Of a stretch of 64,000 bases of DNA, positions 22,898 to 37,163 are shown in pieces. The number at the start of each line of letters is the position of its first letter. Position 1 is the stretch's first letter. The stretch is from a virus. Taxonomy: Duplodnaviria > Heunggongvirae > Uroviricota > Caudoviricetes. The position numbers and the translations under genes were made by a program. The stretch lies in the IMG/VR virus record IMGVR_UViG_3300037587_000312, positions 32,552 through 96,551 of that record. One strand, given 5' to 3'. The notes under the pieces were generated by a model, which was not told the DNA's origin, ran no database searches, and saw nothing but the letters and a program-made list of their open reading frames with translations.

Positions 22898-22956
22898 TAC
22901 TTCTGATTTCTATCTATTCTACACGAAAATAGTTGTATGTCAACAGTAGAAAGCAC

Positions 22957-22984
22957 TTGACACAGGTATAAATAGGGTTAAAAT
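22957..22984 (+). promoter_or_regulatory. sigma70-like promoter TTGACA-N16-TAAAAT
   Basis: Near-consensus hexamers ~25 nt upstream of the small ORF at 23010. Confidence 0.4.
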
Positions 22985-23405: not shown

Positions 23406-23433
23406 TTGCAAACCTAGAAAATGTGTGTATAAT
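23406..23433 (+). promoter_or_regulatory. strong sigma70-like promoter TTGCAA-N16-TATAAT
   Basis: Consensus -10 hexamer. ~30 nt upstream of RBS aggagg and ATG 23467. Confidence 0.5.
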
Positions 23434-23466
23434 TCGATGAAAATTTGTACAGAAAGGAGGATTAAG

Positions 23467-24108
23467 ATGGGTTGTGATATACACTGTTTTGTAGAGCAGA
23501 AAGCTGATGATAGGTGGGAACAGATCGGGGATTTCCTCTCTGATTGGTATGAGGAAGGTGATAAGTATTTCGGAGAAGAGAGATTCAAATATTCTGATTC
23601 CCCTATTGATTGTCGGAACTATTCCCTGTTTGGTGTATTGGCTGGTGTACGGAGGGATTTTACACCAATAGCCGATCCTAGAGGTATCCCAGAAGATGTC
23701 TCTGATTCAATTGGAGAGGATTACAAAGGTTGGGGATGTGATGCTCATACCCCTTCGTGGCTAACTGTTAAAGAACTGTTGGATCATGACTGGGATCAGC
23801 TCATCCGTGTAGGTGGTCTAGTGGATCAATCGGGATTCAAGGAGTACATTAAGCGAGGAGAACCTTCCATATGGTGTGGTAATGTATTTGGTGGGGATAC
23901 TAAAATCATCAGTCAGGATCGTATGATGGTTGGAATTAAAGGGTTGATCCCATTACCAGAAGGACACACTTACTACTGTGGGATTGAATGGACTAACAAA
24001 CTATCCGATTATTTGGGTAAATTCTTGAAGGATACCTTGCCACAGCTTGAGAAGCGATGTAATGGCGATCCTGAGAATTTCCGTATCGTATTCTGGTTTG
24101 ATAACTAA
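23467..24108 (+). CDS. hypothetical early protein
   Basis: ATG 23467 with aggagg at 6-nt spacing. ORF-table start 23425 precedes the predicted transcript start. Confidence 0.45.
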   Translation: MGCDIHCFVEQKADDRWEQIGDFLSDWYEEGDKYFGEERFKYSDSPIDCRNYSLFGVLAGVRRDFTPIADPRGIPEDVSDSIGEDYKGWGCDAHTPSWLTVKELLDHDWDQLIRVGGLVDQSGFKEYIKRGEPSIWCGNVFGGDTKIISQDRMMVGIKGLIPLPEGHTYYCGIEWTNKLSDYLGKFLKDTLPQLEKRCNGDPENFRIVFWFDN

Positions 24109-24116
24109 GGAGTAAC

Positions 24117-24545
24117 ATGAGTAAGATTATACAATTCTCAGGTGAACATAGATACCTGTCAAACTTCTATGATAAGGCACCTTTTCGTTTGTTTGGGTAT
24201 GCTTGGAGAAATTCCGAGAATGCCTACCAAGCGATGAAAAGTTCGGATCAAGATGTGTGGGAATCTATGACAGATCTCTCACCTTTTGAGTCAAAGAAAA
24301 TAGGTAAACGGATCTACCTGCGTCATGATTGGGATGAGGTTAAATATCGAACTATGTACCTTATTGTCAAAGCAAAATTCACACAGAATCGTGATATTGC
24401 AGAGATGCTCATTGCTACAGGTGATTGTTTGATTGAAGAAGGTAATACATGGGGAGATGTTACATGGGGTATTAGCCCTCCTGATACAGGGACAGGGACT
24501 AATTGGTTAGGTAAGATTTTAATGGAAGTGAGGGAGGAACTATAA
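24117..24545 (+). CDS. NADAR-domain protein (YbiA-like; putative ADP-ribosyl hydrolase)
   Basis: FSGEHRYLSNFY...ENAYQAMK...WG signature of the NADAR/DUF1768 family. Confidence 0.6.
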   Translation: MSKIIQFSGEHRYLSNFYDKAPFRLFGYAWRNSENAYQAMKSSDQDVWESMTDLSPFESKKIGKRIYLRHDWDEVKYRTMYLIVKAKFTQNRDIAEMLIATGDCLIEEGNTWGDVTWGISPPDTGTGTNWLGKILMEVREEL

Positions 24546-24546
24546 A

Positions 24547-24816
24547 GTGAAACAACGTACAGGTTTTGTAAGTAATAGCTCGAGTTCCAGTTTTATAATC
24601 TTCAAGCGATTTCTGACACCAGAACAGGTTGATCAGATCAAAGATCACCAACGTTTAGGTAAGGAGTGGAAACTAGATTGGCCAGAAGATTATTGGAATA
24701 TATATGATCATCCAATGGATATATCAGGTTATACCACTATGGATAATTTTGATATGAATCAATTTTTGGATTTAATTGGGGTTGATCCCCAGAAAATAAC
24801 TTGGGAGTACGATTAA
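24547..24816 (+). CDS. paralog 1 of conserved-N-terminus family (MKQRTGFVSNSSSSSFII...)
   Basis: GTG start after gggagg. N-terminal 17-mer shared with four other genes. Confidence 0.5.
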   Translation: MKQRTGFVSNSSSSSFIIFKRFLTPEQVDQIKDHQRLGKEWKLDWPEDYWNIYDHPMDISGYTTMDNFDMNQFLDLIGVDPQKITWEYD

Positions 24817-24817
24817 T

Positions 24818-25315
24818 ATGAAATGTAGAAGTGGGTTTGTGAGCAATAGCTCGAGTAGTAGTTTTATTATCGGAATTGGTATTGTTGAAGATGTCAGTAC
24901 CTATAAGCATGATGATGCCGAGATTGTAACTATTGGTGCATTACGGGAGTGTGACAAACAATCACAAATTCGTTATCAAGAGTGCTTGAAAGAGAAAGCG
25001 TCTGGCACTAGACGTTACTGCTGGTCCCCAGAAAATAATATCAATGTACGGGGTGAGCGTGAATATATTCGCACAACTGCCTTCGATGATTCTGAGGTCT
25101 CTCTGGATATCACAGGTATGTCTGACGATACCACAGTAGCTATCCTAAGCACTGGCGGTGAATTGGATGGTGATCATGATTTTTGTGATGATGAAGATGA
25201 TTATGAGCCAGACTACAGTTTATCCCCAACAGAGCAAGATTATGAGGTGATGAGCGATTTTGAAACAGGGTTGAAATCATCAGAATGTTATGGTGGTGCT
25301 GGCCGTAACGGTTAG
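24818..25315 (+). CDS. paralog 2 of conserved-N-terminus family (MKCRSGFVSNSSSSSFII...), acidic C-terminal region
   Basis: Same 17-mer; divergent acidic tail. Confidence 0.5.
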   Translation: MKCRSGFVSNSSSSSFIIGIGIVEDVSTYKHDDAEIVTIGALRECDKQSQIRYQECLKEKASGTRRYCWSPENNINVRGEREYIRTTAFDDSEVSLDITGMSDDTTVAILSTGGELDGDHDFCDDEDDYEPDYSLSPTEQDYEVMSDFETGLKSSECYGGAGRNG

Positions 25316-25340
25316 TCCCCACAAATAGAGGAGCAATATT

Positions 25341-25772
25341 ATGAAAAGTCGTACAGGTTTTGTGAGCAATAGCTCGAGTTCAAGTTTCATTCTATATGGA
25401 GCAAATTTCCATGGAGATGAGGACGTAGTTGATGCTATCGGTAAACTTTTAACGGAGGAACAGACCCAAGAAGCTCTATCTAAGAGCCGTGATTGGGGTA
25501 ATGATAAACAACCATATGAGTCCATCAAGCTTTGGCTGGAGGATGATTGCTACGAGGTAACCGAGTCTGTAAATAAATATCTCCCTGATGGCATCAATAT
25601 CGAATGTGACGAAGGTGAGTGGTCCATAGGCTCTGATCAAGATCCAGAGTATATTTCCATGGAGCAGGCTCGTAATGGTTTCTGGACCAAAGAGCAAATG
25701 GAAACTGTTGATAAACTTCTGGAAAGTATTGGCAAAACTGCCAGTGTTTTCGGTGGAACACGTATGTGTTAA
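25341..25772 (+). CDS. paralog 3 of conserved-N-terminus family (MKSRTGFVSNSSSSSFIL...)
   Basis: RBS gaggag; same 17-mer. Confidence 0.5.
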   Translation: MKSRTGFVSNSSSSSFILYGANFHGDEDVVDAIGKLLTEEQTQEALSKSRDWGNDKQPYESIKLWLEDDCYEVTESVNKYLPDGINIECDEGEWSIGSDQDPEYISMEQARNGFWTKEQMETVDKLLESIGKTASVFGGTRMC

Positions 25773-25786
25773 GGGAGGATTGTTAA

Positions 25787-26346
25787 TGAAATATAGAACA
25801 GGTTTTGTAAGTAATAGTAGCTCCAGCTCATTCATCTGTGATATCTCAGGGAGATCTGAATCTGGATGGGATATGTGCTTCTCTGATGTTGGTATGTATA
25901 GCTGTGAGAACGGGCATACATTTGACGAGGATTATGCCTTATACAGTGATGAGATCAAGATTCATCTGTTGGAGGAACTAAAAGACACCATCTTAGAGTA
26001 TCACGATGAGGATCTCTGGGAATCATTGCAAGAGGCTGATGATATAACAGACTTCCATGATATTGATGATTTTGTGTATGAATTACCTGAGTGTTGCTGC
26101 CCAATCTGCACATTCAAGGTGTACTCTGAATCAGATATGAAAAGGTTCATGAAGAAGAAGTATGGCACCAGTGAGGAGGATGCATTCGCTGAAGTAAAAG
26201 CCTTGAACAAGCGCCGTAAGAAGTTGTACGATACTGAATACGTGACTTACGTCTGCAAGACTGAGAACACTACAGTTGATGCAGAATTTGATGAGATGCA
26301 GAAGTTTGGTGTCTACAGCAAGTTCAGAGAATACCTAAATAGTTAA
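25787..26346 (+). CDS. paralog 4 of conserved-N-terminus family (MKYRTGFVSNSSSSSFIC...), Cys-containing C-terminal region
   Basis: RBS gggagga then ATG 25787, internal to the longer table ORF 25675..26346. Same 17-mer. Confidence 0.5.
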
Positions 26347-26357
26347 AATAATCACCA

Positions 26358-26383
26358 AAGGGGCTTTACAGCCCCTTTTTCTT
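26358..26383 (+). terminator. rho-independent terminator
   Basis: aaggggct-ttac-agcccctt followed by TTTCTTT. Confidence 0.55.
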
Positions 26384-26387
26384 TGTG

Positions 26388-26408
26388 TAGACTACTCGCA
26401 TCTTAATT
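26388..26408 (+). promoter_or_regulatory. conserved 21-nt motif TAGACTACTCGCATCTTAATT (copy 1), candidate promoter -10/5'UTR element
   Basis: Near-identical copy at 37193..37213. Both lie exactly 39 nt upstream of an ATG and directly after a terminator or the tRNA cluster. Confidence 0.35.
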
Positions 26409-26426
26409 AAACAAGAGGCACACAAT

Positions 26427-26642
26427 ATGACAAATACTTTGGACAAACTATTTAAAATTTTCTTCTCTGCCGCAGGTTTCCTCCTAGCAGCGCAAGTATT
26501 ACAAGGTATGATGGTTGCCCAGAACCAATCACCAGATTTTACACTGTCTATTCTGTTCACTGTAGGGATGTTGGGTGGTATCGGCAACCTCGTAGCTGTC
26601 TGCCTGATTGCCCATGAAGACAACAAAAAGGAGTCAAAATAA
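26427..26642 (+). CDS. small membrane protein (2 TM)
   Basis: Hydrophobic segments. RBS aagagg. Confidence 0.35.
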   Translation: MTNTLDKLFKIFFSAAGFLLAAQVLQGMMVAQNQSPDFTLSILFTVGMLGGIGNLVAVCLIAHEDNKKESK

Positions 26643-26643
26643 T

Positions 26644-27759
26644 ATGAAATTACTTCAAGCCGTACAAGGTGATATCAAAGCAGTTCGTTCAGAGAACTAC
26701 AACTACGAATTCAACATGGAGAATGGTGCGTTCATGCGCTGGGGTAAGACATTCGAAGATGATCCTGACTATGCACCGTTCCCAGAGATTCTGGATATTG
26801 AGATCACATCCAAGTGTAATGGTCCAGCGGGAAAGTTGTGTAACTTCTGTTACAAGAGTAACAATCCGAAAGGTCACAACATGCGTTTTGATATGTTCAA
26901 GAACATCATTGATAAGATGCCCTTCCTGACTCAGATTGCCTTAGGTGCGGATGCACAGGGTATCACCAATCCAGATATGTTCAAGATGATGGGTTACGCC
27001 CGGAGCAAGAACATTATCCCAAACCTGACCATTGCTGACGTATCTTGGGAAGTAGCTGAGAAATTGAGTAAGGTTGCTGGTGCTGTTGCAGTCTCTGTCT
27101 ACAAGCATGCAGGCTTCGATGTAGCATTCGATTCTGTTAACCGTCTGGCTGTATCTGGACAGAAGCAAATCAACTTGCACTACATGATCTCTAAGGCAAC
27201 CCTTGCAGATGCCTATAAGGTTGTTGACGCGATGATGCTAGATTCTCGTCTAGAGAAGGTCAATGCCATCGTATTCTTATCGTTAAAGCAAAAGGGTCGT
27301 GGACTGCGGCATGAGTATGTTACTCAAGAAGAATACAAAGCCTTGGTTGATCATTGTTTGAAGAACAAAATCCCATTTGGTTTCGATTCATGTTCAGCCC
27401 CAACCTTCTTAGACTCAGTAAAGGAACATGAACACTTTGATAAGTTCAACCAAATGGCTGAGCCTTGTGAGAGTACGTTGTTCAGTTCCTATGTGAATGA
27501 GTACGGTCATTTCTACCCTTGCTCCTTCACTGAGAAGTGGAAGGAAGGTGATTGGTTAGAGGGTATCGACGTTGTTGCAGCAGAGAAATTCATCGAAGAT
27601 GTGTGGAATCACCCAAAAACTGTTGACTTCCGTGAGACTTTGATTAATAATAAGGACTCTAACGGATGCCGTCAATGCCCTGCGTATAACGTATGTGGTA
27701 AAGAGTCCATCCCAGACAAATATAAGAAGCAGACTATTGAGGTGGTTAATATTGGGTAA
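26644..27759 (+). CDS. radical SAM enzyme with C-terminal Cys-rich SPASM/twitch-like domain (putative peptide/protein-modifying maturase)
   Basis: EITSKCNGPAGKLCNFCY core (non-canonical CX7CX2C). C-terminal DSCSAP, EPCES, YPCSF and GCRQCPAYNVCG cysteines. Start refined to ATG 26644 after aaggag. Confidence 0.55.
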   Translation: MKLLQAVQGDIKAVRSENYNYEFNMENGAFMRWGKTFEDDPDYAPFPEILDIEITSKCNGPAGKLCNFCYKSNNPKGHNMRFDMFKNIIDKMPFLTQIALGADAQGITNPDMFKMMGYARSKNIIPNLTIADVSWEVAEKLSKVAGAVAVSVYKHAGFDVAFDSVNRLAVSGQKQINLHYMISKATLADAYKVVDAMMLDSRLEKVNAIVFLSLKQKGRGLRHEYVTQEEYKALVDHCLKNKIPFGFDSCSAPTFLDSVKEHEHFDKFNQMAEPCESTLFSSYVNEYGHFYPCSFTEKWKEGDWLEGIDVVAAEKFIEDVWNHPKTVDFRETLINNKDSNGCRQCPAYNVCGKESIPDKYKKQTIEVVNIG

Positions 27760-28205
27760 ACATCACGGGATGTGTGGAACTCCTACATATTGGTCTTGGC
27801 AGGGTATGAAGACTAGGTGTAATAATAGTAATAGGGATTTTACTGATATTTATCTTCAACTGGATTACGACTCTAAATGGGAGAATTTTCTAGGGTTTAT
27901 AGAGGATATGGGGGAAAGACCTGAAGGAACAACCTTGGATAGGAAAGATAATGCTCTTGGGTATACACTTGAAAATTGTAGGTGGGCTGATCTGAGCCCC
28001 CAATGCGCTAATAGAACTAAATTCAAAAGTAATAGCTCGGGGTTTACTGGTGTAAGGCAGCATGGTAGTAAATGGAGGGCGTAGGTTAATTGGAAAGGTA
28101 AACCCATTATAATAGGTTCTTATTCAGACCCATATATGGCGGCTGTTGAAAGAGATAGGTATATAAAAGATAATAACCTACCTCACACCTTAAATTTTAT
28201 AGAGG
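27752..28205 (+). pseudogene. HNH-AP2 type homing endonuclease gene interrupted by in-frame amber codon (TAG at 28082-28084)
   Basis: N-terminal half GKHHGMCGTPTYWSWQGMKTRC...LDRKDNALGYTLENCRWA. The AP2 strand GFTGVRQHGSKWRA is followed by TAG, then the frame stays open with AP2-like continuation VNWKGKPIIIGSYSDPYMAAVERDRYI to TAA 28205. Confidence 0.5.
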
Positions 28206-28216
28206 GGGATTAAATA

Positions 28217-28393
28217 ATGTTTAAATTTGTAATGGGTACGGCGTTGACGGCGGTAGTTTTTCTTGGCTGCCTCCACTTAACTGAGATGGGTCAGGCATAC
28301 AAGAAAACACAAGAGTCCATTTTTGAATGTACTAAGCAAAAGAAGGATACTTGTGTGGTAATCATTGATATGAAACCTTTCTTGGAGGATTAA
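28217..28393 (+). CDS. small lipoprotein (58 aa)
   Basis: Signal peptide MFKFVMGTALTAVVFLGC with lipobox L-G-C. RBS gggggattaaataATG. Confidence 0.4.
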   Translation: MFKFVMGTALTAVVFLGCLHLTEMGQAYKKTQESIFECTKQKKDTCVVIIDMKPFLED

Positions 28394-28396
28394 ATA

Positions 28397-28600
28397 ATGC
28401 GTAACGGGACAATCAAGATTATAAATTTCACTCGCGTAGGACACTATCAGTTAATTACTGACAGGATTGATGATCTTGATTGGGAGAAACTAAAGAGTTC
28501 CTATCGTAAAGTTGGTGTCAGAACTGGACGGGGACTTAGCATCTATGTTACATTCTCCGTTGAGAATGATGTTCTTATTGCAGAGGGGAGTGTAGAATAA
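28397..28600 (+). CDS. hypothetical protein
   Basis: RBS ggaggattaaataATG, a near-duplicate of the preceding initiation region. Confidence 0.35.
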   Translation: MRNGTIKIINFTRVGHYQLITDRIDDLDWEKLKSSYRKVGVRTGRGLSIYVTFSVENDVLIAEGSVE

Positions 28601-28806
28601 TGGAAGTCAATAGCCAAACAACTTATAAATTAAGTGAAAACGATATCAAAGAGGCTATCGCCCATTATATGATTGATCAGTATGGGGTTTGTATAGGAGA
28701 CGTTAACTTCAATGTAAAAGAGTTGACAGAGGATTACCCTATTGGTAACTTTGAGTCTGGTACTCGTCATGTTGGTTATGAGATTACAGCGGAGGGTAAG
28801 GTATGA
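28600..28806 (+). CDS. hypothetical protein
   Basis: Start overlaps the previous stop (TAATG). Confidence 0.3.
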   Translation: MEVNSQTTYKLSENDIKEAIAHYMIDQYGVCIGDVNFNVKELTEDYPIGNFESGTRHVGYEITAEGKV

Positions 28807-29282
28807 AACAGCGTAGTGGATTTGTGAGTAATAGTTCAAGCAGTTCCTTTATTATCGGTCTTCCAAAGAAGCCTGAGACTGAAGCAGAATTGGCTGAAAT
28901 GCTGGGGGATTGTGCTCCATTATGTGGATATGGTACACAATTAACCTCTGAGGAAGTGGTTCACCGAGTGTTTGGGGATATTCAGGGAGAGGATTCTCTA
29001 ACGCAAAGGGGATTAGATGTACCTTTCGACGCAGATTTATGGATTGATTCGGAGATAGATCATTGGAGCTTCGCGTATGATAGGGATAAGGAGGGGATGA
29101 CTTTCCTTGACGCAATTGAGGAGCTGAAGGCTAGTATCCTAGAGACTCAGAGCCAGAAGTTTAAAGGGTTTGACGGGCTTGTCTGTTATGAGCTATCCTA
29201 TTCAGATGATGGTGGGGAGAGTTCTCTTGAGCACGGTGATATCTTCCGTAACATCCCCCACAATCGGGAAAGCCACCACTAG
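28803..29282 (+). CDS. paralog 5 of conserved-N-terminus family (MKQRSGFVSNSSSSSFII...)
   Basis: Same 17-mer. RBS ggagggtaaggtATG. Confidence 0.5.
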   Translation: MKQRSGFVSNSSSSSFIIGLPKKPETEAELAEMLGDCAPLCGYGTQLTSEEVVHRVFGDIQGEDSLTQRGLDVPFDADLWIDSEIDHWSFAYDRDKEGMTFLDAIEELKASILETQSQKFKGFDGLVCYELSYSDDGGESSLEHGDIFRNIPHNRESHH

Positions 29283-31200: not shown

Positions 31201-31414
31201 AACGGTCTCTGGTGTATGTGATGCATTCACACAGGATCTAGAAGAAATTCGGGAATTACAGCAAGCTGAACAGACCAAATTGGCTACTCAAATTGCTAAC
31301 CTGAATACCAAGCACGAAACTGCGACGAAAGAAGTGGTTGAAGCAACAAACGCTATCGCGAACATTCGTAATATGTTCCGTGGTAACACAACTCAAACTC
31401 AAGAGGAAGTATAA
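31151..31414 (+). CDS. hypothetical coiled-coil protein
   Basis: ORF; start uncertain. Confidence 0.25.
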   Translation: MKWRMIMLNQLLSKKTKTVSGVCDAFTQDLEEIRELQQAEQTKLATQIANLNTKHETATKEVVEATNAIANIRNMFRGNTTQTQEEV

Positions 31415-31415
31415 T

Positions 31416-32699
31416 ATGAATCTATCAGGCAAACAAATTCTAGGATGGGGTGGCTCAGCAGTAGGTGCTATTGCTCTGGCTGTCGTAATGGCTACAACAA
31501 TGGGCATCAACAACGCGGGTTATCGAACGGTAATTCAGGGTGTCGGAGGTGATATGAGCGTCAAGTATGATGCCGGTATTTACTTCCCGATGTTTGGTAA
31601 GACCACTGAGTATCCTGATTACCTGACGTATGACTTCAGTGCAAAGGATAAGTCCTGTGACTTTGAAGAGAACGATGGTATCAAGGTACGGTATCAGGAT
31701 GGTGGTGAGGGTGTAGTATGTGGGATGGCTAACGTAATGTTGCCTGTTGCTGGTGATGAGGAAGCCATGATCGCTTTCCACAAACGTTATCGTTCTGAGG
31801 CCGGTGTGCGAGCTAAGCTGCTGAACCAGACGTTCCCTAAGGCTCTGAACCTGACTGCTGTACTAATGAGTTCTGAGGAAGCCTATGCTACCAAACGTTC
31901 TGAGTACATTTCGATGGGTCGTGATCAGGTGGAGAATGGTTTGTATAAGACCAAACTCGTTGAGAAGAATGTACAGGTTGGTATTGACTCTGATGGCGAG
32001 CCTGAGATGCAGTTGAAGGAAGTCCCTCAGATCGTTATGGTCGGTGGTCTTGCTCAACATGACGCTAGTGATCTAACTCAGTGGGGTTTAACCCTCTCTC
32101 AATTCGACTTGAAAGCTTGGGACTTTGAGCCTAACACTCTGACCCAAATCCGTAAGAAACGTGCTGCTGAGATGGCTATCGTAACTGCTAAGGCTAATGC
32201 TAAGAAAGCTTATTGGGAGGAGCAGGAAGTTGTAGCTAACGGTGCCAAGAATGCTGCTGCAGCTAAGGCAGATGCTATTACCGCCGCACAACCGTTGATC
32301 GAGAACAAACTGCGCGACAAGCAATTGGCGATCATTGCAGCTGAGCAACGTACCGCGACTGCTATTGAGAACACTTTGGCCGCTAAGGAAGAAGAGAAGC
32401 GTCAACGTGCATTGGCTAAGGCCGCAGTTCAGGAAGGTAAGAAGATCAAGACCTTGGCCTCTGCTGAGAAGTTCCGTCTTGAGTCTATCGCTGAAGGTGG
32501 TGAACTACAGATGCGTCTGCACACTGCTGAAGTCATGAACAAGGATGCTTGGGTAGAGATTGGTAAGCAGAAATGGACTCCTGAGATCGTTATGGGTGGT
32601 GGTGAAGGTGGTCAGTTGAATGAAGTACAGGCAATGGTACAGACACAATTGATTAAAAACCTTCAGAATGTGGGTATCAACTCTGGTATTCCTAAGTAA
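31416..32699 (+). CDS. SPFH/band-7 (flotillin/prohibitin-like) membrane protein
   Basis: ATG 31416 after aagaggaag. N-terminal TM helix. Long Ala/Glu/Lys-rich coiled-coil region typical of flotillin/HflK-like proteins. Confidence 0.45.
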   Translation: MNLSGKQILGWGGSAVGAIALAVVMATTMGINNAGYRTVIQGVGGDMSVKYDAGIYFPMFGKTTEYPDYLTYDFSAKDKSCDFEENDGIKVRYQDGGEGVVCGMANVMLPVAGDEEAMIAFHKRYRSEAGVRAKLLNQTFPKALNLTAVLMSSEEAYATKRSEYISMGRDQVENGLYKTKLVEKNVQVGIDSDGEPEMQLKEVPQIVMVGGLAQHDASDLTQWGLTLSQFDLKAWDFEPNTLTQIRKKRAAEMAIVTAKANAKKAYWEEQEVVANGAKNAAAAKADAITAAQPLIENKLRDKQLAIIAAEQRTATAIENTLAAKEEEKRQRALAKAAVQEGKKIKTLASAEKFRLESIAEGGELQMRLHTAEVMNKDAWVEIGKQKWTPEIVMGGGEGGQLNEVQAMVQTQLIKNLQNVGINSGIPK

Positions 32700-33728: not shown

Positions 33729-34649
33729 ATGACTTGGGATACAATTAATCGGATGGATAGTACTGACACAGATGTTTGTAAGTTTGTGTTCACCAAAGAC
33801 GATGCCGTAGCAGAGGCAGTTCTCTATAAGTATGGATCTTATAAGGACCGTACTGTTATCTGCTGCTCTACTCAATCAGGCTGTCCTATGGGCTGTACAT
33901 TCTGTGGAACAGGTAAGCAGTTTATTCGTAATCTGACTACAGATGAAATTGTTGCTCAGGTTAAAGCATGTCTTGATCATGCGTTCTATAATCACGGTAC
34001 ACTCTATTCCGATATTGATAAGTTCCAGATCATGTTTATGAGTATGGGTGAGCCTATGCTTAACTGGAAAGCCCTTAAAGACGCCATCCAGATCCTTCAC
34101 TATTCTTATCGGAATGCTGCACTGTTGATTTCAACCAGTGCTCCTGAAACTATTGTGGCGTTCGGTGAGCTTATTGAATTGTCGAAAGAGATCCCACAAA
34201 TAGGTCTACAATTTTCAGTTCACGAATCTTTACAGGAAGAACGTGACAAGCTGATACCTTTCAAAAAGAAACTCTCATTACGGGGGTTGGCTGCGACAGG
34301 AGAGGCATGGGCATATCAAACAGGTCGTAAGGTTTACTTTAATTACTGTGTCCATGAGAAGAATAATGGTGTGGAGGACGCTCAGCGGCTCTCTGAACTG
34401 TTTAAGCCTGAGATGTGGGAAGCCACCATCTCCGTGATCTGTGAGGCTGATGAAAGTGTGTCTGCGTCCATTGAAAGGCAGGAGGAATTAGCTACAGATT
34501 TCTCTGGACTTCTACTTGAACAGGGTTATAATACACGAGTATTCAATCCAGCAGGTCAGGATGATATCGGAGGTGGCTGTGGTCAACTTTGGTTCACCCA
34601 AGAATGGATGAAGAACAACCCTGACAAAGTACGTAAAACACGAGGATAA
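33729..34649 (+). CDS. radical SAM RNA methyltransferase, RlmN/Cfr family (N-terminally shortened)
   Basis: VICCSTQSGCPMGCTFCGTGKQFIRNLTTDEIVAQV parallels the RlmN motif [33 protein letters not shown]. Also MSMGEPMLN (GEP) and a C-terminal GGGCGQL. Confidence 0.6.
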   Translation: MTWDTINRMDSTDTDVCKFVFTKDDAVAEAVLYKYGSYKDRTVICCSTQSGCPMGCTFCGTGKQFIRNLTTDEIVAQVKACLDHAFYNHGTLYSDIDKFQIMFMSMGEPMLNWKALKDAIQILHYSYRNAALLISTSAPETIVAFGELIELSKEIPQIGLQFSVHESLQEERDKLIPFKKKLSLRGLAATGEAWAYQTGRKVYFNYCVHEKNNGVEDAQRLSELFKPEMWEATISVICEADESVSASIERQEELATDFSGLLLEQGYNTRVFNPAGQDDIGGGCGQLWFTQEWMKNNPDKVRKTRG

Positions 34650-34655
34650 AGAACT

Positions 34656-35051
34656 ATGAAATTACTACAACGAATTAAAGATGATCGCTTGGTAGCTCGT
34701 AAGGCCAAAGACACTACCCGCGCAACACTACTCACTACCTTGGTAGGAGAGGCTGAGACTGCGCTGAAGGGCAAGCAAGCAGCTAAGTTTGATACGCTCA
34801 GTCTGGTTAAGAAGTTCATGGCTAACTGTCAGGAGACACTCGCTGTTCGCTATACACCAGCTATCCAAGATGAGATCGATATCCTCAAAGAATATATCCC
34901 AGACCAGTTGACTAAGGAGGAGATTCAAGATATTCTTGCTTCTAAGTTCACAGGTGAAACACTTGGTAAGTTCATGGGCTTCATGAATAAAAACTATCGA
35001 GGAAAGTTCGATGGTAAACTTGCAAGTGATGTGTATAAAAGTACAGGATAA
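34656..35051 (+). CDS. GatB/YqeY-domain protein
   Basis: Length and sequence pattern (KDTTRATLLTTL...IDILKEYIPDQLTKEEIQDIL...GKFMGFMNKNYRGKFDGKLASDV) match the YqeY family. Confidence 0.5.
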   Translation: MKLLQRIKDDRLVARKAKDTTRATLLTTLVGEAETALKGKQAAKFDTLSLVKKFMANCQETLAVRYTPAIQDEIDILKEYIPDQLTKEEIQDILASKFTGETLGKFMGFMNKNYRGKFDGKLASDVYKSTG

Positions 35052-36276: not shown

Positions 36277-36362
36277 GGAAGATTGGCAGAGTGGTAATGC
36301 AGCTGGTTGCTAACCAGTAGTGTCGAAAGGCACCGTAGGTTCGATACCTACATCTTCCGCCA
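36277..36362 (+). tRNA. tRNA-Ser (anticodon GCT), class II, CCA encoded
   Basis: Acceptor GGAAGAT/ATCTTCC, 3-bp D-stem, anticodon loop TTGCTAA, long variable arm, T-loop TTCGATA, 3' GCCA. Confidence 0.6.
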
Positions 36363-36372
36363 GTTTAATATA

Positions 36373-36465
36373 CCCCGCGTGGTGGAATGTATACGCACCG
36401 CAATTAAAATGCGACGACTTCGGTCATGAGGGTTCGAGTCTCTCCGTGGGGACCATTTTAGGGTA
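36373..36465 (+). tRNA. tRNA-Leu (anticodon TAA), class II, CCA encoded
   Basis: Acceptor CCCCGCG/CGTGGGG (one GU), anticodon loop ATTAAAA, variable hairpin GAC-TTCG-GTC, T-arm GAGGG-TTCGAGT-CTCTC, 3' ACCA. Confidence 0.55.
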
Positions 36466-36475
36466 AGGGAAACAA

Positions 36476-36982
36476 GTGAAGATGATTTGGAAAGATGTAG
36501 TTGGTTTTGAGAACTACTTTAAAATAAGTAATCATGGGGATATCTATTCATATAGAAGTGCTAGGGTTTTAAAAAGAGTTAAAGACAAATCGGGATATCT
36601 CACACTACCCACCAAAATTGGTGGTCGGGAAGGTAAGGATTATTGTTTTAAGATCCACAGGTTAGTGGCCATAGCTTTTATTCCTAATCCTAAGGGGAAA
36701 CCTTGCGTAAACCACAAAGATGGGGATAAGGAGAATAATCATATCTCTAATCTAGAATGGTGTACTGTTAAGGAGAATACTCAGCATGCTTTTGACACAG
36801 GGTTATCGAAAGCCTTAAAAGGGGAGAAGAATGTAGGTTCGAGGATTTCCCAAGTAGATGCCGATACTATAAGATTGGTATATACCCCATATTGTAGAAC
36901 CTACGGAGCACGGGCATTAGGAAGAAGATTTGGTATCTCTCACTCCAATATACTCAAAGTTATAAATGGTATTTCATACTAG
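36476..36982 (+). CDS. HNH homing endonuclease (NUMOD4 + HNH_3) inserted in tRNA cluster
   Basis: WKDVVGFENYFKISNHGDIYS (NUMOD4) and HRLVAIAFIPNPKGKPCVNHKDGDKENNHISNLEWCT (HNH_3). Confidence 0.65.
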   Translation: MKMIWKDVVGFENYFKISNHGDIYSYRSARVLKRVKDKSGYLTLPTKIGGREGKDYCFKIHRLVAIAFIPNPKGKPCVNHKDGDKENNHISNLEWCTVKENTQHAFDTGLSKALKGEKNVGSRISQVDADTIRLVYTPYCRTYGARALGRRFGISHSNILKVINGISY

Positions 36983-36988
36983 AATTTT

Positions 36989-37078
36989 AGGACTGACGCA
37001 GGTATTGGTTTGCCTGCACTCGCCTCATAAGCGAGTCTCTTCTGAGCGTTGTGGGTTCAATTCCCTCCGGTCCTACCA
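36989..37078 (+). tRNA. unusual tRNA with anticodon CAT (Met/Ile2-type) and a 15-nt variable region
   Basis: Acceptor AGGACTG/CGGTCCT, D-arm GCAGG-N10-CCTGC, anticodon arm CTCGC-CTCATAA-GCGAG, T-arm GTGGG-TTCAATT-CCCTC (one mismatch), 3' ACCA. The long variable arm is atypical for CAT tRNAs. Confidence 0.35.
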
Positions 37079-37086
37079 CCTATTAA

Positions 37087-37163
37087 GCGCCGGTGCCTCG
37101 AATGGATAAGGGCTGGGATTGCAAATCTCATGTTTGGCAGTTCAAGTCTGCCACGGTGCTCCA
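37087..37163 (+). tRNA. tRNA-Cys (anticodon GCA), CCA encoded
   Basis: Acceptor GCGCCGG/ACGGTGC (6 of 7 pairs), anticodon arm TGGGA-TTGCAAA-TCTCA (same loop as E. coli tRNA-Cys), T-arm GGCAG-TTCAAGT-CTGCC. Confidence 0.55.

Follow-up and report, generated by a model that had tools for sequence, protein, structure and literature searches.

Why should a phage carry several small proteins that begin with the same 17 residues, differ in everything that follows, and lie around a radical S-adenosylmethionine (rSAM) enzyme? The question is raised by a 64-kb stretch of the Caudoviricetes record IMGVR_UViG_3300037587_000312 (hereafter the window, to which all coordinates refer). An original prediction, made from the letters of the window, had described five plus-strand open reading frames (ORFs) with a common N-terminal 17-mer, four of them upstream of an rSAM gene and the fifth about 1 kb downstream. 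We found this arrangement to be as described: all five ORFs (named p1 to p5; the enzyme is called rSAM) carry the tag, and p5 starts 1,044 bp beyond the rSAM stop codon. Four of the predicted starts stand, and that of p4 lies at 25786, not at 25787; the mechanical ORF of p4 extends back to 25675, and its tag ATG is preceded by a GGGAGG ribosome-binding site. The tag and the enzyme recur together across phages and bacterial chromosomes, and we consider it fairly likely that they form a two-component protein-maturation module, in which the rSAM recognizes the exposed N-terminal tag of the paralogs and most likely modifies it.

All five paralogs open with MK.R[ST]GFVSNSSSSSFI. In an alignment of the five window copies with two homologues from Klebsiella phage PMBT1, residues M1, K2, R4, G6, F7, V8, S9, N10, S11 to S15, F16 and I17 are invariant. 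A degenerate DNA pattern for GFVSNSSSSSF matched exactly the five tag genes within the window and gave no match in 100 shuffles. From one copy to the next, the serine codons of the tag change between AGY and TCN, and the DNA upstream of the tag genes is unconserved, a ribosome-binding site being its only common element. The repeat is thus maintained by selection on the protein, and the same two observations rule out a DNA-level repeat or recombination cassette. The phage also encodes a tRNA-Ser(GCT) (36277 to 36362) that reads the AGY codons used heavily in the serine runs of the tag, which may be coincidental.

We searched for the pairing from both sides. For the enzyme-first search, an alignment of 31 rSAM homologues was used as the query, which was required because the rSAM as a single protein found no loci. 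It retrieved 73 IMG/VR loci with 34 to 67% identity to the window enzyme, and a six-frame scan for starts of the form M[KR].R.GFVSNSSS[ST]SF located tag genes at 61 of them. These amounted to 265 ORFs (1 to 14 per locus), all on the strand of the enzyme and mostly in tandem directly up- or downstream of it. Eight of the 12 tag-less loci are from Slopekvirus or RB43-type phages, whose genomes do carry tag genes, at a distance of about 20 kb from the enzyme. The tag-first search used the tag as a DNA pattern, made no reference to the enzyme and returned chunks of 1 to 15 kb. The enzyme was present in 43 of 118 viral chunks and 49 of 93 chunks from prokaryotic genomes (92 of 211), on the same strand as the tag in 91 of the 92 pairs and at a median distance of about 400 nt; at least 14 further viral chunks come from contigs that have the enzyme elsewhere. 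The original prediction would have been refuted had the tag family occurred widely apart from the enzyme; by these figures, it does not occur independently of it. When all ORFs were clustered over 74 loci, no other family was conserved with enzyme and tag, and there was no conserved peptidase, exporter or protein with the recognition element (RRE) of peptides synthesized ribosomally and modified post-translationally (RiPPs).

Among cultured phages, the enzyme is found in 173 to 174 records and a p5-type tag protein in 175, with the same taxon distribution. Phages with the pair include Klebsiella and Enterobacter Slopekviruses, for example PMBT1 (enzyme gp194, tag proteins gp238 and gp243), and Escherichia coli phage RB43. 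The p5 type is the one paralog type matched in isolates; tblastn searches of cultured phages with p1, p2, p4 and a composite query for the M-type tag protein described below (N-terminal tag plus C-terminal part) gave no match. In a profile search of 1.84 billion cluster representatives (50% identity), 21,925 tag proteins were recovered at E ≤ 1e-3, the weakest of which may include serine-rich false positives, and 2,609 at E ≤ 1e-10. The enzyme family comprises at least 3,387 clusters at 90% identity, and the pairing persists down to about 28% enzyme identity and across transfer between phages and bacterial chromosomes. Multi-copy tag arrays with a phage-type rSAM were also seen on contigs of 100 to 250 kb binned as Omnitrophota, Nanoarchaeota, “archaeon” or Patescibacteria, which are probably mis-binned large phage genomes.

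The original prediction had pictured a phage system, and the module does occur in phages but is not specific to them. The tag-first search uncovered chromosomal loci in Veillonella parvula (three loci), Acetatifactor muris DSM 23669 and Lachnobacterium bovis DSM 14045, and others in Verrucomicrobiota, Sulfuricurvum (two loci), Acidobacteriota and Fimbriimonadaceae, the latter two on contigs of up to 1.9 Mb. At the loci examined in detail, a small protein A and one 137-aa tag protein M accompany the rSAM (cassette A-M-R), with a fourth protein, D, after the enzyme in Firmicutes (A-M-R-D). The M protein has the form MKIR.GFV[ST]NSSSTSF ... aromatic-COOH. Three cassettes adjoin defence genes: an Avs-like metallo-β-lactamase with a protease-STAND NTPase at the first, a STAND protein with type I restriction-gene fragments at the second and an apparent SIR2-HerA pair at the third, the last two assignments coming from ORF sequences alone. 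PADLOC holds no model for A, M or D, and we regard the A-M-R(-D) cassette as a candidate for an uncharacterized conflict system.

What kind of enzyme is it? The window rSAM carries the iron-sulfur motif C58-X7-C66-X2-C69 at the start of its barrel; the canonical [4Fe-4S] motif of rSAM enzymes is CX3CX2C. Of these three cysteines, C69 never varies among the 31 homologues, and C58 and C66 are each kept in at least 90% of them. Within the family, the first and second cluster cysteines stand CX3 to CX16 apart, CX7 being commonest in phages and CX3CX2C being found in the bacterial members. Pfam Radical_SAM (PF04055) does not match the window enzyme; it matches a bacterial homologue with 49 bits (cut-off, 29.5) and is among the precomputed matches of two phage homologues. 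The match of the window enzyme to Pfam SPASM is marginal (22.4 bits; cut-off, 21.5), and that to TIGR04085 falls below the cut-off (23 bits against 27). The C-terminal cysteines (C250, C275, C293, C342, C345 and C351) include the arrangements C275-X12-G288-X4-C293 and C342-X2-C345-X5-C351, and the final two cysteines of the seven-cysteine SPASM signature are missing. In the C-terminal half, C250, C275, C293 and C345 alone are conserved throughout the family, the CX12GX4C hairpin among them, and the full SPASM signature (CX9-15GX4C ... CX2CX5CX3C ... C) is confined to the bacterial clade. Four conserved C-terminal cysteines point to one auxiliary cluster in the phage clade, and the sequences thus suggest an auxiliary domain that is reduced and twitch-like. 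The predicted CX7CX2C core and SPASM- or twitch-like C-terminal region are therefore present, and a full SPASM domain is not. The tag variant follows the enzyme clade, in that enzymes with a full SPASM domain are accompanied by T9 tags in 29 of 35 copies and those with a reduced one by S9 tags almost without exception, a pattern that may reflect co-adaptation or plain shared ancestry.

In the AlphaFold model of the rSAM (mean predicted local distance difference test [pLDDT], 94; predicted template-modelling score, 0.90), four short β-strands (residues 4 to 33), which lack the helices of an RRE, precede a partial (β/α) barrel, and a C-terminal domain holds the conserved cysteines. Foldseek searches of the PDB with this model placed SuiB first (E, 4e-10; template-modelling score, 0.66), followed by TigE, EpeE and PqqE, all of them peptide-modifying rSAM enzymes with SPASM or twitch domains. 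The top 22 matches were without exception rSAM enzymes (SuiB, TigE, EpeE, PqqE, HydE and AbmM), and HydG and RlmN appeared lower down. Sequence searches of the PDB, made with the rSAM alone or with its profile, returned noise only, which marks the family as very divergent. The original prediction would also have been refuted if the enzyme belonged to a housekeeping family, which it does not. The enzyme reaches the cut-off of no named NCBIfam family, no anaerobic sulfatase-maturating enzyme (anSME) model was among its matches, and the weak matches of its C-terminal part were to YhhB (E, 0.017; 14 bits, cut-off 445) and FxsB (E, 0.054; 12.5 bits, cut-off 370). The window enzyme likewise matched neither MftC nor a PqqD/RRE model of Pfam. 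The bacterial homologues, which have the full SPASM motif (Pfam SPASM, 28 bits) and are 27 to 31% identical to the phage enzymes over their full length, have MftC, WgkB and PqqE as their best NCBIfam matches, all far under cut-off (93.8 bits against 265 for MftC), and no RRE protein lies nearby. The enzyme is a divergent rSAM protein of the peptide-maturase type with one conserved auxiliary iron-sulfur site.

The original prediction had likened the 17-mer to the leader of such maturation systems. The AlphaFold model of p5 (46-sequence alignment; pLDDT, 80) does not favour a classical removable leader. In this model, residues 1 to 12 form a protruding coil of low confidence and residues 13 to 20 (SSFIIGLP) form a strand, one of only three (13 to 20, 127 to 134 and 153 to 158). 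The second half of the tag (SSSF[IV][IV]) is thus probably the first β-strand, or core, of a folded domain, and since residues 13 to 20 are a core strand in the model, the tag is probably not cleaved off. Neither solved structures nor viral proteins include a relative of the p5 fold. We also considered G6 as a glycyl-radical site and rejected it: the R-x-G-F of the tag is one residue short of the RVxG[FWY] motif, and in 16 of 261 tag copies, whole arrays included, T, S or F stands in place of G6.

Behind the tag the proteins diverge. The prediction that their tails are mostly acidic holds, with net charges of −6, −20, −15, −20 and −18 for p1 to p5, respectively. Of the 252 tails obtained by the enzyme-first search, 98% have a net negative charge (median, −11), and the charge density is −0.096 per residue against −0.016 in neighbouring small proteins of PMBT1 (p = 2e-15). 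Tag proteins measure 89 to 186 aa in the window and 66 to 269 aa elsewhere. The tails of 593 distinct tag proteins fall into 189 BLAST clusters; those of p1, p2, p4 and p5 each belong to a different large cluster, and that of p3 lies outside the 16 largest. A hidden core common to all tails was mostly rejected, in that profile comparison links few of the 16 families (c5 with c13 at 96%, c5 with c12 at 79% and, weakly, c1 with c4 at 18%). Cluster c13 is the type of PMBT1 gp243 and is related to c5, the tail family of p2. Searches of Pfam, NCBIfam and PADLOC gave no meaningful match for the paralogs, for ten major families of tails or for proteins A, M and D of the bacteria. Many unrelated tail families nonetheless share C-terminal endings of the form G-x-[RY]-[ND]-[GH]-COOH or GG[YW]-COOH, examples among loci L003 to L286 being GAGRNG, GGGYDG, GTRMC and GG[YW]-COOH (e.g., L019 +14686 and L194 −4561). 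An aromatic C-terminal residue is present in 47 of 58 M-type tag proteins, typically as GGY or GGW-COOH; most other tail families, including all five window proteins, do not end in this aromatic or Gly-x-Tyr-like manner. The C terminus may pack against the tag or may itself be a target. The M-type tail family (cluster c1) also occurs within phage arrays and looks ancestral.

How might the two components work together? In the mechanism that we propose, the enzyme would bind the exposed N-terminal tail (about residues 1 to 12, MK.R.GFVSNSS) common to all co-encoded paralogs, and the 5′-deoxyadenosyl radical would most likely modify a residue inside or directly beside it. The tag would stay on, its second half being built into the folded domain. 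The paralogs would be small, strongly acidic and fast-diversifying proteins, and through the tag a single enzyme could serve the whole set. These substrates would be kept in excess by a terminator that separates the array from the enzyme gene. Such a terminator-like hairpin lies in the window between p4 and orf71, the small ORF ahead of the enzyme gene, with a minimum free energy of −14.1 kcal/mol (z-score, −3.0; equal stability in none of 200 shuffles). Because it is upstream of the enzyme gene, tag-protein transcripts would exceed those of the enzyme, a ratio that suits substrates. The architecture of a maturation system, as put forward in the original prediction, gains support from the structural neighbours of the enzyme and from the wide recurrence of the pairing.

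The steps of this mechanism differ in standing. The data show the tag, its conservation at the level of the protein, its close and widespread linkage to the enzyme, the class of the enzyme and the lack of a third conserved partner gene. From these we infer physical recognition of the tag by the enzyme. That a covalent change occurs at all, with serine or another residue as the acceptor, is speculative, F7, S/T9 and N10 being the invariant candidates. So is a role of the paralogs as host-takeover or counter-defence effectors, which is suggested by their acidity and rapid diversification, by the position of the module in the genome and by the defence genes beside three bacterial cassettes. We would go further only tentatively, to a possibility that we hold to be doubtful: that the enzyme installs a new modification on a universal N-terminal “arming tag”, which activates or protects an arsenal of acidic phage effectors, and that bacteria use the same pair in defence islands.

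Several points weigh against a maturation module. The tag is far more conserved than the usual recognition sequences of maturases, so that it may have a further or a different role. The window enzyme, as noted above, misses Pfam Radical_SAM, has an unusual CX7CX2C loop and is without part of the SPASM cysteines, and the strand call for residues 13 to 20 comes from a single AlphaFold model of the stated pLDDT. The tag genes of Slopekvirus and RB43-type phages are remote from the enzyme, several large tag-first chunks have no enzyme nearby, and shared ancestry alone could explain the covariation of tag and enzyme clade.

Some of these data could be read differently. The tag might anchor the paralogs in the rSAM as interchangeable specificity or regulatory subunits, whose task would be to recruit other targets to it, be they host proteins, nucleic acids or metabolites, and which would themselves stay unmodified. 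The linkage data fit this arrangement as well as they fit maturation, the family-specific four-stranded β domain ahead of the barrel could take up the tag strand, and the variety of tails would suit target recognition. Yet the closest relatives of the enzyme in structure and sequence all modify the peptide that they bind, and up to 14 adaptors per enzyme, together with the terminator, would give a large excess of tag protein that fits substrates better than subunits. On balance, we judge docking of this kind to be unlikely.

Rather less probable still, in our view, is that the serine-rich N-terminal loop is the paralogs' own site for a small molecule or metal, with the rSAM making or altering the ligand and the paralogs acting as binders or sponges. 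In the p5 family, the invariant tag residues are accompanied by invariant D135, E143, H144 and C-terminal H159, and the similar endings of unrelated tails would be in keeping with such a site. The core of the bacterial rSAM, moreover, weakly matches PADLOC models of prokaryotic viperins (pVips), which are nucleotide-modifying rSAM enzymes. Against this, the tail families are mostly unrelated by profile comparison and hence offer no common pocket, residues 1 to 12 are predicted to be unstructured, the p5 fold matches no known binding domain, and the neighbours of the enzyme are peptide maturases rather than nucleotide or cofactor enzymes.

The original prediction had also offered the alternative of a capsid-targeting or cleavage tag. 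A conserved N terminus on variable, small proteins clustered in a plastic region does resemble the internal-protein loci of T4-type phages, and the 17-mer could then be a signal for capsid targeting, injection or degradation, the rSAM being merely a co-inherited accessory. However, the 17-mer holds no glutamate in any of 261 copies and no L/I-x-E site for a prohead protease, and its tails are acidic; internal proteins packaged with phage DNA are basic. The bacterial cassettes have a single tag copy and no capsid genes within the 8-kb loci examined, and a median linkage of 400 nt maintained over about 28 to 67% enzyme identity would be unexpected for unrelated genes. Such a sorting signal is poorly compatible with the data and very improbable. 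Equally at odds with them, and hardly credible, is a chance expansion of paralogs beside an rSAM in a hypervariable region: five genes by one enzyme could be coincidence if the window stood alone, but the pairing is met in well over 100 loci that are independent of one another and come from different phage lineages and bacterial phyla, which effectively refutes coincidence.

Is a maturation module of this kind already known? Its closest counterparts are the rSAM-SPASM maturases of RiPPs (SuiB of streptide, PqqE, MftC and the epimerases of the EpeE/YydG type), which come nearest to the window enzyme in structure and to its bacterial homologues in sequence. As in those systems, an enzyme gene stands beside several substrate candidates that have one recognition sequence in common and are otherwise different, and the enzyme has the CX12GX4C hairpin of an auxiliary-cluster domain. 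Unlike in those systems, the partners are folded proteins and not short precursor peptides; the shared sequence is at the extreme N terminus, near-invariant and apparently part of the fold rather than a cleavable leader; and no RRE/PqqD domain, peptidase or exporter is conserved. The auxiliary domain is cut down to four conserved cysteines, the cluster loop departs from that of RiPP maturases (CX7CX2C in the window, CX3 to CX16 in the family), and up to 14 substrate-candidate genes accompany one enzyme, in large and apparently virulent phages. Mycofactocin (MftA/B/C) differs further in that the MftC cut-off is not reached here and no MftB/RRE partner is nearby. The substrate of that system ends in Gly-x-Tyr-COOH, with which the mixed picture of tail endings given above may be compared.

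Other known systems share single features with the module. The anSME/AtsB enzymes, which are rSAM proteins with auxiliary clusters, act on a short motif near the N terminus of whole proteins and can oxidize serine, and they are the best precedent for a serine-rich acceptor on a protein substrate. The present module differs from them in that their (C/S)-x-(P/A)-x-R or (C/S)xPxR motif is absent from the tag, no anSME model matches, one auxiliary site is conserved and the partners are unrelated to sulfatases. The invariant F7-V8-S/T9 of the tag corresponds, at the level of sequence only, to the aromatic-x-X3 or FxS motif of triceptide (three-residue cyclophane) systems with FxsB, YhhB or XyeB enzymes, the first two of which are among the weak matches of the rSAM. 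In bacterial conflict systems, FxSxx peptides are found together with rSAM-SPASM partners (PMC7159879). By cut-off, the enzyme is outside the FxsB, YhhB and XyeB families, and their FxSxx motifs are C-terminal, repeated and in peptides, whereas here there is one single N-terminal motif, on proteins. T4-type internal proteins, finally, follow a similar plan, in which small proteins with nothing else in common bear one conserved N-terminal tag and are encoded in clusters in a plastic part of a large phage genome; the present module differs in that a protease site is missing, the tails are acidic, linkage to an rSAM is obligatory and the tag occurs in bacterial chromosomes.

The logic of an rSAM maturase whose substrates have a common recognition sequence is thus already known. 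What is new here is that the partners are of protein size, that the N-terminal tag is integral and near-invariant, that phage arrays hold up to 14 genes, that accessory genes are missing and that a counterpart lies beside bacterial defence genes. Neither the tag family nor the pairing is described in Pfam, NCBIfam (June 2026), PADLOC or the searchable full-text literature, motif strings included, in line with the statement of the original prediction that the combination was not recognizable from any described phage system. PHROGs lists families of unknown function only (phrog_7293 and phrog_7397). Should the tag indeed be modified, this would be, as far as we have found, the first rSAM protein-maturation system in large, apparently virulent phages, and a very large one, given the numbers of tag-protein and enzyme clusters reported above. 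A handle of 16 residues would then suffice for one enzyme to serve as many as 14 protein scaffolds that are unrelated to one another. Enzymology would gain new radical chemistry on Phe, Ser or Asn, and protein engineering a portable tag, and phage-host biology would be directly concerned as well. The tails have the look of arms-race proteins, and three bacterial cassettes lie beside Avs-like, SIR2-HerA and restriction genes. The arming of effectors, if true, would add enzyme-matured protein weapons, as a new class, to the conflict between phage and host. Cultured models (Slopekviruses such as PMBT1, and RB43) make the module directly testable.

The features of the window that bear on the module and its surroundings are collected in Table 1.

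Table 1. Positions of the tag genes, the enzyme gene and neighbouring features in the 64-kb window
Feature	Position	Strand	Remarks
227-aa protein, phrog_10141	23425-24108	+	precedes the NADAR gene
NADAR-domain protein	24117-24545	+	Pfam, 88.7 bits; ends 1 nt ahead of p1
p1, tag protein	24547-24816	+	GTG start; 89 aa; net charge −6; tail of the “LTxEQI...MDNFDM” family, cluster c2
p2, tag protein	24818-25315	+	165 aa; tail of the “IIGIG...GAGRNG-COOH” family, cluster c5
p3, tag protein	25341-25772	+	143 aa; tail C terminus FGGTRMC-COOH
p4, tag protein	25786-26346	+	186 aa; Cys-rich “F[IV]C[DN][IV][CS]G” tail family, largest cluster (c0)
Terminator-like hairpin with T-run (intrinsic)	26357-26388	+	11 nt past the p4 stop; between the tag array and orf71/rSAM
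orf71, small hydrophobic protein	26427-26642	+	between the array and rSAM
rSAM enzyme	26644-27759	+	371 aa; ATG start 9 nt downstream of AGGAG
HNH homing-endonuclease ORF	27695-28084	+	overlaps the final 65 nt of the tag-associated rSAM; between rSAM and p5
p5, tag protein, phrog_7397	28803-29282	+	159 aa; conserved C-terminal motif YxxxYSD..G...LEHG.IFRN..H...SHH-COOH
SPFH/Band-7 domain protein, phrog_11908	31338-32699	+	453 aa; Pfam, 25.4 bits; about 2 kb downstream of p5
Second, unrelated rSAM, RlmN/Cfr RNA-methyltransferase type	33729-34649	+	TIGR00048, 121.9 bits (cut-off 290); Pfam Radical_SAM, 30.9 bits
YqeY-like gene	34656-35051		after the second rSAM
Four tRNA genes (Ser-GCT, Leu-TAA, Met-CAT, Cys-GCA)	36277-37163		downstream of the YqeY-like gene
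NUMOD4-HNH gene	36476-36982	+	by the tRNA cluster

The module lies just downstream of a divergent promoter region (22916 to 22984), inside a block of small plus-strand genes of unassigned function beside the replication genes. A T4-like identity of the phage was rejected: it encodes a PolA-type DNA polymerase, a primase-helicase, a tape measure protein and baseplate proteins. Its polymerase is nearest to those of Vibrio phages 277E43-1 (57% identity) and PWH3a-P1 (53%), which have myovirus-type genomes of about 127 to 129 kb, and a megablast search of cultured phages with the region gave no match. Vibrio phage 277E43-1 shares the gene order around the polymerase; a scan of 125 of its 127 kb revealed neither the enzyme nor a tag gene, indicating that the module is an accessory unit, present or absent as a whole.

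Among the immediate neighbours, orf71 is called as a gene in an independent assembly too, has no family match and is not conserved at other enzyme loci, and its membership of the module is uncertain. The NADAR gene and the gene of the 227-aa protein are not conserved with the module at other loci either. Between rSAM and p5 lie, in addition to the HNH homing-endonuclease ORF, three small ORFs. The orthologous rSAM of Slopekviruses is also flanked by an HNH gene, and in one phage, where the rSAM gene falls into two parts, its N-terminal part is overlapped by a stretch that holds a GIY-YIG-domain gene (PMC9960720). Further downstream, the second rSAM is without the N-terminal part of RlmN; a predicted rSAM of the RNA-methyltransferase type thus adjoins tRNA genes in this phage.

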